A stretch of DNA of 64,000 nt from an uncultured archaeon (GCA_964486045.1 CAZALK010000005.1:128001-192000); one strand, 5' to 3'; counted from the stretch's first letter, positions 946 to 10,691 are shown. Notes: a model not told the origin generated them from the letters alone. Numbers and translations are program-made.

Positions 946-1653
946 ATGGTGAATTTAATAATGTTTTCTGAAAATGAACTTAACAATATTAAAAGAGAAA
1001 TGGCTAAATTAAAAAATTCTGTTGTTTTGAAGTTATTTACAGATTTCAAAACTCAAGCAGATGGGAGTAAACTTAGAAAATGTATGGCTTGCGAGGGTAC
1101 ATATGAGTTATTAAAAACATTAAGAGAGTTATCTAATGGGAAATTAATTATAAAAGAGTTGTCAACAGAAGAGAATGCTGAAGAAGCTGAAAAATATAAT
1201 ATTTCAAGGATTCCAGCGATATTGTTTGTTGATGAAAATGACCAAGAAATTATTCGATACTTAGCACATCCAACAGGATCTGAATTTGTACCCTTTCTAA
1301 ATAGTATCCAATATTTTTCAGGAGTAAGACCATATTATGCTGATCAAATCATTACTCATCTAAAAAAAATAAAGAAGTCAAAAATGAAGATCTTTATAAC
1401 CCCCACATGCCCATATTGTCCAATGACAGTACCTGTTCTAACACTCTTTGCTATAGTTTCTAAAGGAAAAATATCAGCAGAAGTTATTGATGTTAATTTG
1501 AATCCTGATCTAGGAATGAAATATCAAGTTCAAGGAGTACCTCATACGGTCGTGAATGAAACTGATAATATAATCGGTCAGTTCACTCCTCAAGATTTGT
1601 TAGACAAATTAGTTGGATCAAAAGAAAGAGATTTTGGAGGGATGTATGCATAA
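946..1653 (+). CDS. Protein disulfide oxidoreductase (two thioredoxin folds, AhpF-NTD/PDO type)
   Basis: CMAC and TCPYCP motifs, cis-Pro motifs RIPA and GVPH. Confidence 0.9.
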   Translation: MVNLIMFSENELNNIKREMAKLKNSVVLKLFTDFKTQADGSKLRKCMACEGTYELLKTLRELSNGKLIIKELSTEENAEEAEKYNISRIPAILFVDENDQEIIRYLAHPTGSEFVPFLNSIQYFSGVRPYYADQIITHLKKIKKSKMKIFITPTCPYCPMTVPVLTLFAIVSKGKISAEVIDVNLNPDLGMKYQVQGVPHTVVNETDNIIGQFTPQDLLDKLVGSKERDFGGMYA

Positions 1654-2336
1654 TGTCTTCAGATGATAGATATAAGGAAATTATAAAGACAGAAATGGCT
1701 AAATTAACCAGACCTGTTAATTTAAAGGTTTTTACTTGTAAGGAAAAACAACCAGAGGGAAGCCAAATACGAGAATGCATGGATTGTGGGCAATTTATGG
1801 CTTTACTGAAGGTTTATGAGGAAAATTCAAATGGGATGCTCACAATAGAAGAATTATGTATTGATGACAACCCCGAATTCGCGAAACAATATGATATATC
1901 TCGAGTTCCTACAATTCTATTCATTGACAATGAAGGGAGAGAAGTTATTCGCTATTTAGCATCACCCAAAGCTGGTGAGATTCAACCATTCATTCAAGCG
2001 GTATTTGCTTTCGCAGGAGCACCGAATTATTATGAATCAACAATACGAAAGAACTTAGATCGCATCAAACCATCTACAATAAAGGTAATGATAACAGAAA
2101 CTTGCCCTTACTGTCCACAAGTTGCTACAGTAGTTAATAATTTTGCAATAGCATCGAAAGGAAAAATTAGATCAATTATAATTGATATAACGGCAAATCC
2201 CGACATTGGTCAGTACTATGACGCAGCAGGAGTCCCTTACACAATCATTAATGACCAAAAAACGATTGTAGGTATGGTTGGCGCACCTGAGATATTAAAA
2301 GCATTGATTGGGAGTGATATTCGAGTTCAATATTAA
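1653..2336 (+). CDS. Second protein disulfide oxidoreductase paralogue
   Basis: CMDC and TCPYCP motifs. TAATG stop/start overlap with the upstream paralogue. Confidence 0.9.
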   Translation: MSSDDRYKEIIKTEMAKLTRPVNLKVFTCKEKQPEGSQIRECMDCGQFMALLKVYEENSNGMLTIEELCIDDNPEFAKQYDISRVPTILFIDNEGREVIRYLASPKAGEIQPFIQAVFAFAGAPNYYESTIRKNLDRIKPSTIKVMITETCPYCPQVATVVNNFAIASKGKIRSIIIDITANPDIGQYYDAAGVPYTIINDQKTIVGMVGAPEILKALIGSDIRVQY

Positions 2337-2420
2337 TTCTTTTTTAACTTGTTTAACTCCATTTTTTTCTATGAAGAAAATAATTTATGTATGTATTACT
2401 TATAGAAAGGAGAGGAAAAG

Positions 2421-3365
2421 ATGTTTAACTTTGATATGGAAAGTATTGATTTTGAAAAGACTTATGACCTTATTGTTTTAGGGGGTGGCCCCACAGCAAT
2501 AGGATGTGCTATATATGCCGCAAGGTTTGCAATGGATGTACTTGTTATTGGCAAAATTTTCGGCGGTTTAATAGCAACAACACACATAGTTGAGAATTAT
2601 CCTGCTATAACCTCTGTCAGTGGTCAAGGGTTAATGGAGATGTTCAGAGACCATATGAATTCACTCAAAATACCGTACATATCAGATGAAATAAAAAGTA
2701 TTGAAAGAGTGGACGATCATTTTGAGCTTAATTCATTTTTTCAAAAATTTAAAGCATATTCAATTTGTATTGCCACCGGTTCAGAAAGGAAAAAACTTGG
2801 AGTTCCGGGGGAGGAAGATTATGCTGGAAGGGGTGTGTCTTATTGTGCAACATGTGATGGACCGTTTTATAAAGATAAAGTTGTTTGTGTAATTGGAGGG
2901 AGTGATTCTGCTGCAAAAGAGGCTTTATTCTTATCTCAGAATGTTAAAAAGGTTTATATTATCTACCGTGGAGAAGAAATACGAGCTGAACCGATAAACA
3001 AGCAAAGAGTGTATGATAATGATAAAATTGAAATCATTTATGAAACAAACATTCTTGAAATTAAAGGAGATAATACTGTAAAGTCTGTGATTTTTGATAA
3101 CGGTAAAGAATTTGAGGTGAATGGAGTCTTCATAGAGATAGGGTCGATCCCCAATTCCGAATTAGCAAAAAGAATAGGAGTAAAGACAAATGAGAAAGGA
3201 GAGATCATAATTAATCGTAAATCCGAAACAAACATCCCGGGAATCTTTGCTGCGGGAGATGTAGCGGATGCACCATTTAAACAAGCGATTACAGGTGTAT
3301 CTGAAGGTGTAATTGCTGCTTATTCTGCTTTTGATCATGTTAAAGAAATGAATATTGAATATTAG
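2421..3365 (+). CDS. trxB: Thioredoxin-disulfide reductase
   Basis: GGGP FAD motif, GRGVSYCATCDG active site, GGSDSA, TNIPGIFAAGDV. Confidence 0.95.
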   Translation: MFNFDMESIDFEKTYDLIVLGGGPTAIGCAIYAARFAMDVLVIGKIFGGLIATTHIVENYPAITSVSGQGLMEMFRDHMNSLKIPYISDEIKSIERVDDHFELNSFFQKFKAYSICIATGSERKKLGVPGEEDYAGRGVSYCATCDGPFYKDKVVCVIGGSDSAAKEALFLSQNVKKVYIIYRGEEIRAEPINKQRVYDNDKIEIIYETNILEIKGDNTVKSVIFDNGKEFEVNGVFIEIGSIPNSELAKRIGVKTNEKGEIIINRKSETNIPGIFAAGDVADAPFKQAITGVSEGVIAAYSAFDHVKEMNIEY

Positions 3366-3403: not shown

Positions 3404-3784
3404 TTAATCTATTTTTATATCTATGCTATGGTATTCGGGTTCTTTAAAGGGTACTTCAATCTTTAAAAGCCCTTGATGATAAACTGCTTTTGCCTCTTCT
3501 GGTTTTACTGGACAACATATAGCGTAGGAACCGATATAGATTGTGTCATCGGTTTCTCCTTTGATGAAAAAACTTTCATCATGCATCTTGAGTTTAATTG
3601 AATCCTTCTCTGCTCCAGGTAGTTGTATTTCGATTTTATAAGTCTCACTGTCATCATCAGCCCAAGAACAAATTTCAGGAGACATTAAAAACTTATCTTC
3701 TTTAGATTCTTCTTTAATTTCTTCTATCGCTTCTTCTTTAATTTCTTCTTTCGTTTCTTCTTTGATTTCTTGCATTCTTTTCAC
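3404..3784 (-). CDS. Small heat-shock protein (Hsp20/alpha-crystallin) with acidic repeat N-terminus
   Basis: IQLPG and AKAVYHQGLLKIEVP alpha-crystallin motifs. Confidence 0.85.
   Translation of the reverse strand: MKRMQEIKEETKEEIKEEAIEEIKEESKEDKFLMSPEICSWADDDSETYKIEIQLPGAEKDSIKLKMHDESFFIKGETDDTIYIGSYAICCPVKPEEAKAVYHQGLLKIEVPFKEPEYHSIDIKID
3701..3775 (-). repeat. In-frame imperfect 12-bp tandem repeat encoding (EEIK/EETK/EEAI/EESK)n
   Basis: QEIKEETKEEIKEEAIEEIKEESKED. DNA repeats such as ttcttctttaat occur on the + strand. Confidence 0.8.
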
Positions 3785-3955
3785 TTTAGAGTTTTTTTTT
3801 TAATATAGATTTCTTATTAAACCATCCAAAGTAGCTGATATAAAAGTTCTTTCTATGGTTCATTACAAAAAAGAATTTTTTCACTAAAAGATAAAACCAA
3901 AAACTAGTTTTATTTTTAAATTATAAAAAGATGAAATTTTGTGGAATGGGTACTC

Positions 3956-4897
3956 TTATTGGGGATTTAGTAAATGTGATTCTTTTAATAGTATTTTCAA
4001 AATCTTGTCCCAATATTCTTTAACTTCCCATTCTTGTTTTTTTTTTATTTTTGCAGAGATTTCTTTTAAAATTTCCCTAATTGCGAGTGAACTAAAGTAT
4101 GAGATATTTGGGGCGATTACTGATAACATATATTGTTTTTCTCCAAATCTTTCACGTTCATCTGGAAAAGAATCAAAGAACAGATAACCCTTTTTCTTAA
4201 TATTTTCTATATTTAATAAAATACTCTCAGCTTGGGTTATCTTGTCATGCCCATAAATAGAAGTTGCTGCGTGAAAAAGCTGTTTCCCAATTGTTCTTGT
4301 TGAAAAATGACATAATTCATCAGAAGGATAACTATCCTTCAATCCAGGACCGGTAATATCGTCCCAGCATACGTAGAGTAAACAGAAGAAGGACATTTCA
4401 TCTTTAGAAATAGGTTGTTGTAATTCTGTATTGGCAGAAGTGAGGAGCTGCTTAATTTTATCATCAATTAAATCGGATTTTCTACTACGGGCAATTTTTC
4501 CAGATATTGAGGCAATAAGATCCTCCTTGTTAAATGGTTTCGTAATATAATCATCTACTCCTAACATCTTCCCCAATCGAATATCTTCAGGTGTTGATTT
4601 AGCCGTTAGGAATAAAAATGGAACACGATTCCATTGAGAATTGGAGGATACAACAGAAAAAAATTCATAGCCACTCATGTTTGGCATCATAATATCACTT
4701 ATAATAACTTCAGGTATTGTTTCTAGGGTAGTGAGGATATTGAGTGCTTCATCCCCACTATTAGCAGTTACTACTTCATAATTCATTTTTTCGAGCATTA
4801 TTTTGAGATTGAAGAGGATGTCTAAATTATCATCTACAACCAGTAATAATGGTTTACCGTTTGAATTTGACATAGTTTTGATTACGTCTAAACACAA
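3956..4897 (-). CDS. Response regulator: REC domain fused to a C-terminal longin/uDENN-like domain
   Basis: REC motifs VVDD, SDIMMPNMSG, LTAK and YITKPF. C-terminal LLYVCWDDITGP and YLFFDSFPDERERFGEKQYMLSVI. The true start may be the ATG at 4873. Confidence 0.85.
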   Translation of the reverse strand: MCLDVIKTMSNSNGKPLLLVVDDNLDILFNLKIMLEKMNYEVVTANSGDEALNILTTLETIPEVIISDIMMPNMSGYEFFSVVSSNSQWNRVPFLFLTAKSTPEDIRLGKMLGVDDYITKPFNKEDLIASISGKIARSRKSDLIDDKIKQLLTSANTELQQPISKDEMSFFCLLYVCWDDITGPGLKDSYPSDELCHFSTRTIGKQLFHAATSIYGHDKITQAESILLNIENIKKKGYLFFDSFPDERERFGEKQYMLSVIAPNISYFSSLAIREILKEISAKIKKKQEWEVKEYWDKILKILLKESHLLNPQ

Positions 4898-5006
4898 TTC
4901 ACAAAGATCTTCAATATTTTATTGAATCGATCTTATATAAATGAGTTTTTCTATTGTTGATTCCATTTTTAATAATCCGAATATAATTTAAAGTTTGTAC
5001 TAGAGG

Positions 5007-7568
5007 CTATGAAAGTTGAGGTAGAAATAGATTAATTGTTGTTCCTTTTTCTAATTCACTTTCAATGTATATTTTACCTTGATGGGCCTCTATTAAATCT
5101 TTAGCAATAGCTAATCCTAATCCAGTTCCAGTTATTTTATCTACATTACTACCGCGGAAAAATCGTTCAAAAATGTGAGGAATATCTTCTTTTGAGATCC
5201 CACGACCATGATCCTTGAATTGAAAGAGAACTCCCTTATTCCCATCCAAATTATATTCACCTTGATAATTATCTATAGCATTAATTTCTATTTTTGAATT
5301 TTCATTTGAGTATTTTAAAGCATTTTCTATTAGAATTCGAAAAATTTGATCAATCCTTTTTGAATCACCTCGTAGATGAAGATGGTCATCCACCTCGATT
5401 TCAAAATCTATATTCTTTTCCTTGCCTATAGGTTCCATAAGATATAAGATTTCGTTGATTATTTCTAAAGGATTATATTCCTCTCGTTCTATTACTAGCC
5501 TATTTTCATCAATTCTTGAAATTAAAAGTATATCTTCTGCTAATTTATTTAGCAATTGGATGTTTCTTGAGATCCCCTCCATCAATTTTTCTTCTAACTC
5601 CTTATTGAGTGAACTTTTATTCTTAGTAAGATATTCGATTGACATCAACAAAACGGTAATGGGTGTCCTTAATTCATGTGAAACTGTAGAAATTAATTGG
5701 GATATCTTCTGTTCCGCTTTTTTACGTTCTGTAATATCTAATCCGTAAACATTTACATAATCCATATTTTCAACTGGAGTAACAGCTAGAGTATAAGTTC
5801 TGCTATTTAACCTTACTTCGAGTTCCTCGTTTTTCTTAGTAGTTAGAGCAGTATATATTGGTTTTTCTAAAACCCTCGGAATGAGATTATCTTCACTAAT
5901 GTTAAATAATTTCTTACCAATTTTATTAGAATAGATTACTTTTTGGTTATTTACTCTCAATACAGGATTTGGATTTTCAGAAGGAAATTTTGATAAATTA
6001 AGTATCTCCTCTTCTGCTTTTTTACGTTCTATAAAAGTAGCAATCATTTCAGAAATTCCGTTAATTAAAAACCGCTCTTCCTTAAAAAAAGGTCCCTCCT
6101 CAAATTCAAGCCTTTCCTCTAAATATAAAACTTCTATAGCTCCAGTAGTTTTTCCATATTCTCTAATATTAGCTTTTAGTACCCATTTAGTTTCTCTAAA
6201 ATTTGCTGTTGTTAGCTCTTGACCTTTGTAAAAAATTCTCGCACAAGTAATTTCAGGATATTGCCAAGCTGGTGGAAGATATCGTAATGTTTCTTCTAGA
6301 ACTTGCTCTATCGAAATATCTTTTTTTTCAATCAATTTGGAAACATTATAGAAACACGTAAGTTCTTTTACTCTTTCTTTTAAATCGTATTCTCTCTTCT
6401 TTATCTCTTCTTCTGCTTTCTTCAATTCTGTAATTTCTGTTGCGACACTAAGTAAGGAGGGAAATTTTGATTCGTAGTCTTCTATCGGCTGTTCTACTAT
6501 CCAATAAGTTTTTCTACCGACTGGTATGTCGAATGTACGCTGATAAGATCTACTCCTTCCCTCTCTAATTAGCTCTTGGTTACTTTTCATGTATTCATCA
6601 GCTAACTTCTGTGGTAGAACGTCATGAAGTGTTTTTCCTATGAAATCCTCGGGTATTCCACCCAACTCACTAGCAGCTTTTTCATTTACTAATAAATATA
6701 TCCCATTTTCGTCTAGCATTGTGATGCCTGCCCCAGAATGATCAATAATATTTCTTAATTCCAATTCACTTCTCTTGATTTGTCTTAACAATAAATCAAA
6801 TGGTTTTTCGATTCCAATTTGAATTACAGATTTGTACAAAAGGTAGAATGCAATTATTTTAAAGATATGGCCAACTAAATTTGAAAATCCGTAAACATTA
6901 ATATAAAATGTGAAGGCCAATTCTGCGATCATTATTGAGACAATTGAACTAACAATCAGGACTAGAACTTTTTTATCAAATTCTTTCCGATTTCTAATAA
7001 TTAACAAAAGAGAAACAAGCAATACAAGATCAATTACATATTCACTGATGATTTTAAAAGGAGTTAGACCATAGTTTTCAATATAACAGATGGGGAAGAG
7101 ATTATTAAAGATCAATGTTAGTAAGATAATAGTAATAAGAAAATAGGTTACGAGAAGATAAAAGGGATTGATAGTCCTTTTTAATAGAAGCAAAGCAGTT
7201 AAGATAGATCCTGCTTGAAGGTAACGAGCAGCTATCCATAAAGATGTTGGAAGATTTGCATCAAACTCAAGAAAAATCTGCATACCCGTATAAGAAAACG
7301 TATGAATTAAATCAAAAATACCAATAAAAAGAGATGAAACCCCAAGAATTAGAAAAAAGGAGTTTTTCATATATCTCCGAGAGTTCCAACCAACGAAAAA
7401 CACACCTCCTGCGATAATTATGCTGAATATTTCTGCAATGCTATGAAATAATAAATATCTATAAAGACTTGTAATATATACAAGTAGCAACCCCAAAAAT
7501 AAAATTAAATATTCTATTATTTCCGGATTTACATTAAGAGGGAAAGTTCGATTATTATTTTCCGACAT
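5007..7568 (-). CDS. Membrane sensor histidine kinase (MASE3-PAS-GAF-like-PAS-HisKA-HATPase)
   Basis: MASE3-like YLLFHSIAEIFS, DLIHTFSY and LWIAARY. SHELRTP H-box, ENALKY N-box, DHGRGI, FERFFR, GTGLGL. Confidence 0.92.
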   Translation of the reverse strand: MSENNNRTFPLNVNPEIIEYLILFLGLLLVYITSLYRYLLFHSIAEIFSIIIAGGVFFVGWNSRRYMKNSFFLILGVSSLFIGIFDLIHTFSYTGMQIFLEFDANLPTSLWIAARYLQAGSILTALLLLKRTINPFYLLVTYFLITIILLTLIFNNLFPICYIENYGLTPFKIISEYVIDLVLLVSLLLIIRNRKEFDKKVLVLIVSSIVSIMIAELAFTFYINVYGFSNLVGHIFKIIAFYLLYKSVIQIGIEKPFDLLLRQIKRSELELRNIIDHSGAGITMLDENGIYLLVNEKAASELGGIPEDFIGKTLHDVLPQKLADEYMKSNQELIREGRSRSYQRTFDIPVGRKTYWIVEQPIEDYESKFPSLLSVATEITELKKAEEEIKKREYDLKERVKELTCFYNVSKLIEKKDISIEQVLEETLRYLPPAWQYPEITCARIFYKGQELTTANFRETKWVLKANIREYGKTTGAIEVLYLEERLEFEEGPFFKEERFLINGISEMIATFIERKKAEEEILNLSKFPSENPNPVLRVNNQKVIYSNKIGKKLFNISEDNLIPRVLEKPIYTALTTKKNEELEVRLNSRTYTLAVTPVENMDYVNVYGLDITERKKAEQKISQLISTVSHELRTPITVLLMSIEYLTKNKSSLNKELEEKLMEGISRNIQLLNKLAEDILLISRIDENRLVIEREEYNPLEIINEILYLMEPIGKEKNIDFEIEVDDHLHLRGDSKRIDQIFRILIENALKYSNENSKIEINAIDNYQGEYNLDGNKGVLFQFKDHGRGISKEDIPHIFERFFRGSNVDKITGTGLGLAIAKDLIEAHQGKIYIESELEKGTTINLFLPQLS

Positions 7569-7621: not shown

Positions 7622-8161
7622 TTAAGTGATTGTAGTCTTCTCAAAAATTGCATATATTGAGGTTTTAAATAATGAATATGTAAAATTCGGTGGTATTTTC
7701 TCTTTTATTTTTTTTATAAATTTATCAATGATTATCTCATTTAATTCTTGATTAAATTTTAGGTCTGGATCATATTTATGGAGAAAAATTGAAAAATCAA
7801 TATTCTTACGTTTTTGTATTGATTTTATTACCTTTTCCAAGTACTCAATTGCATGAACATACCTTTTTACATCTTGAATATCAATAACATATATTATTTT
7901 ACTAGTGTCATCAAAGAATTTGGATGTTTGGTTAATATAATCCCCACGGTATGCTTTTTGTCCACTAAGATCCCAAATGACATACTTCAAATTCAAAGCT
8001 TCAAAATTTTCTATATCTGGCTCTCTAGTGGGAACTATTGAATTAAAAATAGATAGGTTCTTAATTCCTTGTAAACATTTTGATATTGATGTTTTTCCAC
8101 TATTAGCTAATCCAATCATTAAGATTTTTTTTGATTTTTCAGAAGTTTTTGAAATAGTCAT
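7622..8161 (-). CDS. Small Ras-superfamily GTPase, Rag/Gtr1- or Arf-like (eukaryotic signature protein)
   Basis: G1 GLANSGKTS, G2 PT, G3 WDLSGQ, G4 HKYD (Rag-type His), G5 TSI. No C-terminal roadblock domain. Confidence 0.88.
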   Translation of the reverse strand: MTISKTSEKSKKILMIGLANSGKTSISKCLQGIKNLSIFNSIVPTREPDIENFEALNLKYVIWDLSGQKAYRGDYINQTSKFFDDTSKIIYVIDIQDVKRYVHAIEYLEKVIKSIQKRKNIDFSIFLHKYDPDLKFNQELNEIIIDKFIKKIKEKIPPNFTYSLFKTSIYAIFEKTTIT

Positions 8162-8216: not shown

Positions 8217-8552
8217 TTAAGATAAAGTATCATAGATGTCTTGATCTCTTATATGCTTAAATTTTTTTTTATTAATATCCAGTGCAATTGTATTTATTGT
8301 CTTTATGAGGTTAAGAATTTCATTATTTTCAATTTTGTAGTATTTGATATTATCTCTTTTCTCAAAGTCGATGAAATTATTCTCTATTAGCATATTTAGA
8401 TGTTTAGAAATTGTTGATTGAGATCTGTCCAAAGCTAACTTAATTTCTAAGGCAGTTTTTTCACTGTTCTGTAAAAGACTTATTATATCTAATCTTGTTG
8501 GATCACCAAGTACCTTCAAGAACTCAACAGTGTATTTTCGTAATTCGCTCAT
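8217..8552 (-). CDS. ArsR/SmtB family transcriptional regulator
   Basis: KVLGDPTRLDII and SQSTISKHL motifs. Confidence 0.9.
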   Translation of the reverse strand: MSELRKYTVEFLKVLGDPTRLDIISLLQNSEKTALEIKLALDRSQSTISKHLNMLIENNFIDFEKRDNIKYYKIENNEILNLIKTINTIALDINKKKFKHIRDQDIYDTLS

Positions 8553-8746: not shown

Positions 8747-9217
8747 ATGATTAGTGAAAAAATTGGAATAGATTCTATCGATTGTCAGATAATGGATTTA
8801 ATTCAAAAGTCTCCAAATCTCACACATACTGAAATTGCTACACATGTAAACCGTAGTCAACCTACAGTTGGTATGCGGATTAGGAAACTTGAGAAATTAG
8901 GTGTTTTAAAGTACCAGGCAGGAATTAATATTAGGATTGCAAATCTTTGTTTTGCTAGAGTAGAACTTCAGACTAAAAATCCAAAAAAGGCAATAGAGAT
9001 TGTTAACCGCTGTCCTAATATGATTAACGCGCTTAAATTGAGCGGAAGTACAAATCTAAGCATTTTATTAGCTGGTACAAATTATAAACTCCTCGATGAT
9101 ATTGTTAATGTATATTTTAGAGATGATCCTGATGTTATACACGTCCATATTGATATAATTGAAGATGTTGTCAATGATTTCGTTTTACCGATTGATTATA
9201 ATCTTGTAGCTGGATAA
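8747..9217 (+). CDS. Lrp/AsnC family regulator (paralogue 1)
   Basis: DSIDCQIM...THTEIA...SQPTVGMRIRKLE HTH plus RAM domain. Confidence 0.9.
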   Translation: MISEKIGIDSIDCQIMDLIQKSPNLTHTEIATHVNRSQPTVGMRIRKLEKLGVLKYQAGINIRIANLCFARVELQTKNPKKAIEIVNRCPNMINALKLSGSTNLSILLAGTNYKLLDDIVNVYFRDDPDVIHVHIDIIEDVVNDFVLPIDYNLVAG

Positions 9218-10181: not shown

Positions 10182-10691
10182 TCATTCATGACTATGGTCT
10201 TCATTGCATACTGGGCAACTTTTGGTGTGCTCGATATTAAAATTTAACGGTAGTACTAAATCATCTGCCACATCAATAATGAGGGACATTTGGACTTTTG
10301 CAACAGCCGGGTTTCTTCTAAAATGATGATTTACTATCCGTTCAAGAATACTGAGATTTAACCCAACAATAATAATGCTAATATTCGCATCTCCACTTAA
10401 ATTGAAAGCGTTTAACATGCACGGACACTTATTAACCATTTCAAATGATTCTTGGGGATTATTAGTTTGGATATCAACCCTTGCAAAGCATAAATCCCGA
10501 TTCTTAAGTGTAATGCCTGCTTGATATTTCAAAACTCCTAAATTCTCAAGTTTTTTAATTCGCATCCCTATAGTTGGCTGACTACGATTCACGTGCTCAG
10601 CGATTTGAGCGTGGGTAAGATTTGGCGACGTCTGGACTAAATCCATTATCTGACAGTCAATTTCATCAATTCCTAGACTTTCACTTAACAT
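10182..10691 (-). CDS. Lrp/AsnC family regulator (paralogue 2) with C-terminal CPVC and His tail
   Basis: SQPTIGMRIKKLE HTH, CPCM, C-terminal SCPVCNEDHSHE. Confidence 0.9.
   Translation of the reverse strand: MLSESLGIDEIDCQIMDLVQTSPNLTHAQIAEHVNRSQPTIGMRIKKLENLGVLKYQAGITLKNRDLCFARVDIQTNNPQESFEMVNKCPCMLNAFNLSGDANISIIIVGLNLSILERIVNHHFRRNPAVAKVQMSLIIDVADDLVLPLNFNIEHTKSCPVCNEDHSHE

Follow-up and report, generated by a model that had tools for sequence, protein, structure and literature searches.

This study concerns a stretch of 64,000 nucleotides from an uncultured archaeon (GCA_964486045.1 CAZALK010000005.1:128001-192000), hereafter the window, and in particular a gene that encodes a two-component receiver domain fused to a longin domain. 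This receiver-longin protein is a candidate GTPase-activating protein (GAP) for a small GTPase encoded two genes upstream. The G+C content of the window is ~30%. The receiver-longin open reading frame (4897-3956) is the fourth of five genes that run in the same direction on the minus strand, in the order ArsR (8552-8217), GTPase (8161-7622), kinase (7568-5007), receiver-longin, and HSP20 (3784-3404). The features of this cassette are:

8217-8552, minus strand: ArsR-type helix-turn-helix regulator, first gene of the cassette (Pfam HTH_5, 9e-11)
7622-8161, minus strand: small Rag/Arf-like GTPase of 179 amino acids without a roadblock tail, the proposed target (Pfam Arf 1.2e-19, Gtr1_RagA 1.5e-19)
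5007-7568, minus strand: MASE3-PAS-HisKA-HATPase membrane sensor histidine kinase of 853 amino acids (Pfam MASE3 6.6e-80, HisKA, HATPase_c)
3956-4873, minus strand: receiver-longin response regulator gene, 305 amino acids from ATG
4505-4843, minus strand: receiver (REC) domain (Pfam Response_reg 7.5e-24; D22, D23, D68, T98, K120)
4385-4504, minus strand: predicted long alpha5 extension, then flexible linker (full-length AlphaFold2 (AF2) model)
3968-4384, minus strand: predicted longin domain of the FLCN/Lst4/C9orf72 type, residues ~172-310 (AF2 model, structural searches)
4346-4366, minus strand: W178-D179-x3-G183-P184 motif in the predicted beta1-beta2 turn (conservation counts, C9orf72 spacing)
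4142-4162, minus strand: predicted beta4-beta5 loop D246-G252 with the candidate arginine finger R250 (DSSP of the AF2 model, conservation counts)
3404-3784, minus strand: HSP20 small heat-shock protein gene, conserved downstream neighbour (Pfam HSP20)

The minus-strand open reading frame at 3956-4897 comprises 313 codons and remains open as far upstream as a TTG at 4897. The ATG at 4873 is the most likely translation start, because the database copy of the protein (P0003) is 305 residues long and 100% identical. Residue numbers count from the upstream TTG, and 8 is subtracted for the 305-residue form. The codons of W178, G183-P184, R250 (AGA), and D68 lie at 4366-4364, 4351-4346, 4150-4148, and 4696-4694, respectively.

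The Pfam receiver family (PF00072) matched residues 19-131 with 84.5 bits against a cut-off of 30.2. The phospho-acceptor set, consisting of the acidic pocket D22/D23, D68, T98, and K120, is conserved among 121 closer orthologues, so that the receiver looks functional. Pfam and NCBIfam recognise the receiver alone, and residues 150-313 have no family assignment in either. The full-length AF2 model (predicted local distance difference test, pLDDT, 86.5; predicted template modelling score, pTM, 0.52) consists of the receiver with a long alpha5 helix at 116-146, a disordered linker at 148-157 (pLDDT <50), and then the longin domain, all in the numbering of the 305-residue form. The model suggests that receiver and longin are flexibly tethered, which is compatible with a putative control by receiver dimerisation. 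The protein terminates 3 residues past the last longin helix, and a DENN domain after the longin is absent.

Modelled with an alignment (A1) in which 79 proteins represent clusters of 50% identity, the longin domain reached a pLDDT of 91.9 and a pTM of 0.85. DSSP assigned beta1 to residues 172-179, beta2 to 183-190, alpha1 to 200-215, beta3 to 224-230, beta4 to 235-245, beta5 to 253-262, alpha2 to 267-285, and alpha3 to 292-310. This order of beta-beta-alpha-beta-beta-beta-alpha-alpha without an N-terminal helix is that of longins, and the missing helix separates it from roadblock. Foldseek against the PDB first returned GATOR1 (NPRL2/3), the SEA complex, FLCN-FNIP2, the Lokiarchaeal "Roadblock-Longin" 8yqg, DENND10, and DENND1, while PAS/LOV matches were discarded for a root-mean-square deviation (rmsd) of 10-17 Å. 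An exhaustive VIA-align search of 48,161 representative chains, independent of Foldseek, placed FLCN first (6nzd_H, Z 12.4, rmsd 2.6 Å over 130 residues, 12% identity), closely followed by Lst4 (12.2), the Lokiarchaeal longin 8yqg (11.9), C9orf72 (11.5), FNIP2 (10.2), and SMCR8 (9.9). Lower ranks were occupied by VAMP7 (9.7), TRAPP (9.4), DENND1A (9.1), NPRL chains (~9), roadblock proteins (~8), and MglB (7.7). Another structural search agreed with this result, and longins fill the top of both. A shape search of the ESM Atlas found clusters at template modelling scores of 0.61-0.71 that are tagged Folliculin (from Heimdall-type archaea), SMCR8, C9orf72, NPR2, Avl9/DENND11, and an archaeal Arf/Ras-GTPase fusion. 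The modelled longin fold is a solid assignment, and a preference for the FLCN/C9orf72 group above generic longins is consistent across these searches but graded. A preliminary description made from the sequence had compared motifs of the output domain with those of longin domains, FLCN and SMCR8 among them, and the AF2 model, Foldseek, VIA-align, and the ESM Atlas all bear out a longin of the FLCN/Lst4/C9orf72/SMCR8 kind.

Sequence profiles gave a different picture. The Pfam families Folliculin, NPR2, C9orf72 (PF15019), and DENN had no match at E up to 10 in any of the 79 family members, and whole-genome scans with PF06218 (NPR2) and PF11704 (Folliculin) found nothing at the receiver-longin locus. 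The family profile had 0 matches among all PDB sequences. A language-model atlas returned sub-threshold leads, at 0.80, and at 0.77 for a cluster with NPR2 on 19% of its members. A literature search gave no paper for the PDB entries 8yqg, 8yl2, or 8zla.

A word-indexed search with residues 150-313 retrieved 271 proteins, nearly all of them receiver fusions of ~300 residues, and those homologues that have a name carry the labels Promethearchaeota, Lokiarchaeota, Thorarchaeota, or Hodarchaeota. HMMER, run exhaustively over 1.84 billion cluster representatives, yielded 157 clusters. Among the 79 representatives of A1, W178 occurred in 75, G183 in 74, P184 in 73, and R250 in 55, and Y267 is nearly invariant. 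The residues W178, D180, G183, P184, Q206, Y215, G216, F241, D242, R250, and M257 are invariant in the 121 closer orthologues. Judged from these alignments, the motif conservation is beyond chance.

In the AF2 model, beta2 begins with G183 and P184, and R250 is situated between beta4 (235-245) and beta5 (253-262). The strand order of the longin sheet is 2-1-5-4-3, and from this topology the beta1-beta2 and beta4-beta5 turns would be neighbours at the same end of the sheet. The spacing of W178-D179-x3-G183-P184 is identical to that of W33-D34...G38-P39 in C9orf72 (PMC12290439, PMC8213707). A 2025 survey equates this GP motif with C9orf72 G38-P39 and SMCR8 G68-P69, reports it also for FLCN and NPRL2, and places it at the end of the loop before beta2, beside the arginine finger; the motif is absent from the longins of FNIP2, NPRL3, TRAPP, adaptin, and DENND (PMC12290439). 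Tang et al. aligned the betaL4-betaL5 loop of SMCR8, in which R147 corresponds to FLCN R164 (10.1101/2020.04.16.045708). According to Su et al., SMCR8 R147 points at BeF3- in ARF1, and the C9orf72 double change W33G/D34K abolishes GAP activity (PMC8213707). By this sequence comparison, the WD..GP element of the C9orf72 type and the arginine of the SMCR8/FLCN type stand together on one chain.

Both elements had been proposed in the preliminary description. The WD..xGP motif is present in the translated reading frame with the C9orf72 spacing. The arginine of DERERFG does fall in the loop that holds FLCN R164 and SMCR8 R147, and of its two arginines the alignments single out the second, R250, as the conserved one, because R250 is present in 121 of 121 orthologues, among which the first, R248, varies freely.

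The GTPase of the cassette was compared over 53 orthologues, in which the P-loop GxxNxGK(T/S), T45, D64-x-x-G67-Q68, and H128-K-x-D131 are invariant. Its Pfam scores for Arf and Gtr1_RagA tie. HKxD is the Rag-type G4 motif, and it is invariant here, but the 179-residue protein is without the C-terminal roadblock dimerisation domain of Rag/Gtr proteins. By sequence, the closest solved relatives are the Lokiarchaeal GTPases 8yl2 and 8zla/9m28 (the Rag-like "LokiRagM"); next come Arl3/Arf1 with partial coverage and RagC/D with full coverage of the G domain. The invariant Gln68 of DxxGQ would fit an arginine given in trans.

The cassette order of ArsR, Rag/Arf-like GTPase, MASE3 kinase, receiver-longin, and HSP20 was found again in a complete Promethearchaeota chromosome (L001), in two Hodarchaeota-labelled contigs (L002, L003), and in a Thorarchaeota-labelled contig (L004), so that it recurs in Loki-, Hod-, and Thor-labelled genomes. 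ArsR precedes the GTPase in all four of these loci as well as in a further variant (L063), HSP20 holds the same place in L001-L004, and in the orthologous loci the kinase gene is placed between the GTPase and receiver-longin genes. A close homologue of the receiver-longin protein occurred in 12 of 81 reference genomes sampled across the phylum. Seven of the eight genomes of the window's family carry the GTPase orthologue ~2.8-3.3 kb off on the same strand, while the eighth has the GTPase and the longin on different contigs, the longin close to where its contig begins.

A further 71 loci from 61 genomes of the class were fetched and scored with local hidden Markov models. Among other arrangements were a receiver-longin gene with a Rag-like GTPase gene directly after it (at a distance of 0-163 bp), pairs that converge or overlap, and the order ArsR / GTPase / receiver-longin. 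Single-chain fusions join the longin domain to a Ras-family GTPase (P0155) and to an Arf-family GTPase (P0177), and both retain the arginine. Other longin-domain fusions, like these two from metagenomic relatives, involve hybrid kinase-receiver proteins, RsbRD_N, DUF1638, and TPR (among P0124, P0130, P0176, P0179, and P0264). These proteins show extensive domain shuffling around one predicted GAP-like module. Gene context and fusions make the neighbouring GTPase a well-supported candidate partner of the receiver-longin protein, as had been suggested in the preliminary description for the gene at 7622-8161. For one Lokiarchaeon, Tran et al. (2024) reported that GTPase and longin genes generally do not share an operon (PMC10933270).

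Among the informative loci, a Rag/Arf-like GTPase gene lay within 5 kb of 44 of the 50 Arg-bearing copies but of only 1 of the 10 Arg-less copies. The raw 2x2 table (44/6 versus 1/9) gives a Fisher p of 3e-6, which is confounded by relatedness and does not count as independent evidence.

Several Arg-less or divergent relatives were observed in the same genome and elsewhere. A second receiver-longin paralogue of 297 residues and 33% identity is encoded outside the window on contig C8 of the window's own genome (C8:185435-185833; L005:7427-8320, minus strand). It keeps W-D..GP, with Glu in the place of R250; Usp, an alpha/beta hydrolase, and a cyclase are encoded next to it, and no GTPase lies within 7 kb. 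The paralogue belongs to an Arg-less "GKGTFM" subfamily that 8 other genomes of the genus also encode, and 0 of its 7 informative loci lie near a GTPase. An obligatory Arg-less heterodimer partner for the window gene was set aside, as this subfamily was seen solely in the window's own genus. Another variant (L063:3269-9957, contig C300 of genome G115) consists of ArsR, a Rag/Arf-like GTPase, an Arg-less (Ile) receiver-longin, an opposite-strand CheB-CheR-PAS-kinase fusion, and an Arg-bearing receiver-longin. By analogy, the two longins of L063 may form a catalytic and non-catalytic pair that recalls FLCN-FNIP. At L007:4079-10054 (contig C1 of genome G026), an Arg-less (Leu) receiver-longin with WH..GP accompanies a soluble PAS kinase and two CitMHS transporters. 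No GTPase is in the vicinity, and judging from this context a non-GAP use of the domain is possible there. Lastly, contig C6 of the window's own genome encodes, again outside the window (L006:6247-10374, plus strand), a protein of 1375 residues whose N-terminus matches the first half of the longin family (E 4.6e-8). Many PAS domains follow the longin-like part, and relatives of ~1130 residues are present in many genomes of the family.

A complex prediction was run with two longin copies and the GTPase, with GTP and Mg, and only the GTPase partner was scored. The complex score was 0.59 (runs 0.62, 0.01, and 0.59) against 0.00 for the best control. Of 80 solved complexes, 58 reached the mark applied to this score, and of 110 mismatched pairs, 2 did; among scores of 0.60 or under, the mark was reached by only 7 of the 80 solved complexes and by both of these mismatches. 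Agreement of contacts between the runs is at least 0%, and the partner has a pLDDT of at least 73. The prediction lends weak support to a longin-GTPase complex, and its score may reflect likeness to existing solved longin-GTPase complexes.

Taken with the modelled fold, the conserved motifs, the intact receiver, and the conserved linkage to the GTPase gene, the preferred reading is that of a two-component response regulator with a GAP-type longin output. The protein would be a phosphorylation-controlled GAP for the neighbouring Rag/Arf-like GTPase with R250 as its finger, a reading to which we give about an even chance. In the proposed mechanism, D68 of the receiver would be phosphorylated by the MASE3 histidine kinase encoded just upstream, which would alter receiver dimerisation or free the tethered longin and lead to a longin dimer platform. 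This platform would bind the Rag/Arf-like GTPase, whose gene is the second one upstream, in its GTP form. R250 would then enter the nucleotide pocket beside the WD..GP turn and complement Gln68 of the GTPase, so that GTP hydrolysis is accelerated and the GTPase is switched off. The physical binding, the direction of control, the dimerisation, and the catalysis in this scheme are what we infer.

Several points weigh against this reading. R250 is missing in 24 of the 79 representatives, and its role could instead be structural, as a partner of the conserved D242/D246. The VIA-align scores slide gradually into generic longins such as VAMP7 and TRAPP without a sharp break. Homology to the eukaryotic GAP longins rests on the predicted fold and short motifs, because sequence profiles miss both the Pfam Folliculin and NPR2 families and the solved chains. 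One of the three complex runs scored 0.01. On a tree built without the loop columns, independent contrasts numbered only 2 when supported branches were counted and 4 with all branches, and the sign-test p was 1. The link between arginine retention and GTPase adjacency is only suggestive, since with so few independent contrasts the sign test cannot reach significance.

The alternative that survives best is that the longin binds the neighbouring GTPase as an exchange factor, an anchor, or a sensor of the nucleotide state, with R250 as a structural or interface residue. Its models are Ragulator, TRAPP, Mon1-Ccz1, DENN, and modules of the RomR/RomX type. We consider it fairly unlikely, although gene context and fusions show linkage and not the sign of regulation. 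Rag GTPases have a C-terminal roadblock domain, and by analogy the longin in the cis fusions with GTPases could be a dimerisation platform. The longins of DENND1, Mon1-Ccz1, and TRAPP are among the structural neighbours (Z 8.4-9.4), and the precedent of known platforms also speaks for this alternative and against a GAP, as most longin/roadblock platforms are guanine nucleotide exchange factors (GEFs) or scaffolds (GEFs: PMC10933270, PMC12290439). However, a GP motif together with a beta4-beta5 arginine is reported only for GAP-type longins and is absent from DENND, TRAPP, FNIP2, and NPRL3 (PMC12290439). The top structural matches belong to the FLCN/Lst4/C9orf72/SMCR8 group, and R250 is invariant in the GTPase-linked orthologues.

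A second alternative reverses the flow of information, from the GTPase to the two-component system. Here the receiver-longin would be an effector or feedback element, and the GTP-bound GTPase would bind the longin and modulate phosphotransfer from the MASE3 kinase or localise the regulator. This appears improbable, as the receiver of a response regulator normally governs its attached output domain, and the strict conservation of a GAP-type arginine and WD..GP pocket would be left unexplained. In its favour, the GTPase precedes the kinase and the receiver-longin in the gene order of the cassette, and context cannot give direction. A receiver domain is also carried by RomR of Myxococcus, and a re-interpretation of RomR/RomX makes it an effector of MglA-GTP instead of a GEF (PMC13408092).

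Least probable of all is a GTPase-independent interaction or dimerisation output (with ArsR, HSP20, or a membrane partner as possible targets) whose GTPase linkage reflects co-regulation; 6 of the 50 Arg-bearing and 9 of the 10 Arg-less copies have no GTPase within 5 kb, the contig C8 paralogue sits beside Usp and hydrolase genes, and some longins such as SNAREs and adaptor sigma subunits have no GTPase role (PMC10933270), but GTPase adjacency in at least three different gene arrangements, direct GTPase fusions, the motifs of GAP longins, and, weakly, the complex prediction all speak against it.

In the surroundings of the receiver-longin gene, a TATA-like TTTATATAA lies at 4933-4941 on the minus strand, 60 nt upstream of the start ATG (4873), and past the stop codon there are oligo-T runs (window 3900-3955). 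The gene may have its own archaeal promoter and terminator beside any read-through from the kinase gene. A sigma-70 promoter and terminator scan gave 24 promoter-like sites against 29 expected and 0 terminator-like sites, a model that is uninformative for an archaeon. On the opposite strand beside HSP20 (946-3365) are two thioredoxin-fold paralogues in tandem (946-1653 and 1653-2336) along with a thioredoxin-reductase-like flavoprotein (2421-3365). The thioredoxin-reductase-like gene holds the same position in L001 and L002, a hint that the surroundings of the cassette are related to redox or stress. Upstream of the cassette, paralogues of a Lrp/AsnC-type regulator (8747-9217 and 10182-10691) flank a small ferredoxin-like open reading frame, an arrangement also present in L001, L002, and L004.

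Small GTPases and longin/roadblock proteins each number in the dozens in Asgard archaea, and which regulator pairs with which GTPase is the question. The cassette offers a specific, conserved, and tractable pair, namely a Rag/Arf-like GTPase of 179 residues and a receiver-longin of 305 residues with D68 as a built-in switch. Both this class of fusion (Liu et al. 2020) and the GP/Arg signature of Asgard longins (PMC12290439) have been published, and the value of the cassette lies in a concrete test case for biochemistry and not in the idea, because the concept is already in print. Added here are R250 as the conserved residue, the two elements on one chain, the quantified conservation of the cassette, multiple independent pairings and fusions with GTPases, paralogues without the arginine (one of them in the same genome), and the count of arginine against adjacency. 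If Arg-dependent GAP activity is true, longin GAP chemistry would predate eukaryotes and stand under two-component control, which would bear on the origin of Rag/mTORC1-type signalling.

A wider and more doubtful proposal sees in the cassette an archaeal precursor of Rag-FLCN/GATOR nutrient signalling, with a membrane sensor kinase, and not a lysosomal scaffold, turning the longin GAP on or off through phosphorylation. Since one longin chain bears both WD..GP and the arginine, it may represent an ancestral homodimeric GAP from before the catalytic/non-catalytic heterodimers of eukaryotes. Under this tentative proposal, the Arg-less paralogues of contig C8 and L063 would be first steps to a partner like FNIP, NPRL3, or C9orf72.

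Among known systems, FLCN (yeast Lst7), which acts with FNIP as a GAP for RagC/D, is the best structural match and shares the catalytic arginine in the beta4-beta5 loop and the GP motif. FLCN acts on a Rag GTPase, and the proposed target of the window protein is Rag/Arf-like. In contrast to FLCN, the window protein has neither a DENN domain nor a zinc-binding insert, the cassette has no FNIP-like partner gene, and the proposed control is by the fused receiver and not by Ragulator/SLC38A9. A longin without a following DENN domain is unlike the full architecture of FLCN, SMCR8, and C9orf72 but resembles the longin-only yeast Lst7 (10.1101/2020.04.16.045708). With the ARF/RAB GAP C9orf72-SMCR8, the window protein shares the W-D-x3-G-P spacing of C9orf72 and an arginine that corresponds to SMCR8 R147. 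The WD element and the arginine are on one chain here but on two subunits in the human complex, and the window protein has neither a DENN domain nor WDR41.

Closer in lineage are the Asgard "NPRL2-like longin" fusions (10.1101/2020.10.19.343400, Fig. 5c; Nature 2021), which are of the same class, as the window protein, likewise from an Asgard archaeon, combines a two-component domain with an NPRL2/FLCN-like longin. In the available part of that source, Liu et al. (2020) proposed a tie of prokaryotic two-component signalling to eukaryote-like GTPase regulators (10.1101/2020.10.19.343400), and this part gives no arginine or GP analysis, named GTPase partner, or cassette. Asgard longins of the FLCN/SMCR8 type have GP at beta2 and the arginine finger with the same arrangement in the structure, as predicted here, and were considered possible GAPs for ArfR or Rag/Gtr GTPases (PMC12290439). 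That survey covers one reference Heimdallarchaeial protein and 14 other Asgard longins and poses the partner GTPase as a question; unlike the window cassette, its main text has no receiver fusions or operons.

The Myxococcus MglA/MglB/RomR-RomX module also combines a prokaryotic small GTPase, a dimer of the roadblock/longin superfamily, and a receiver protein, RomR (PMC9481161, PMC13408092). MglB is a roadblock and not a longin, supplies no arginine finger, and matches the window longin at Z 7.7. The receiver and the platform are separate proteins in Myxococcus, whereas both are fused in the window protein.

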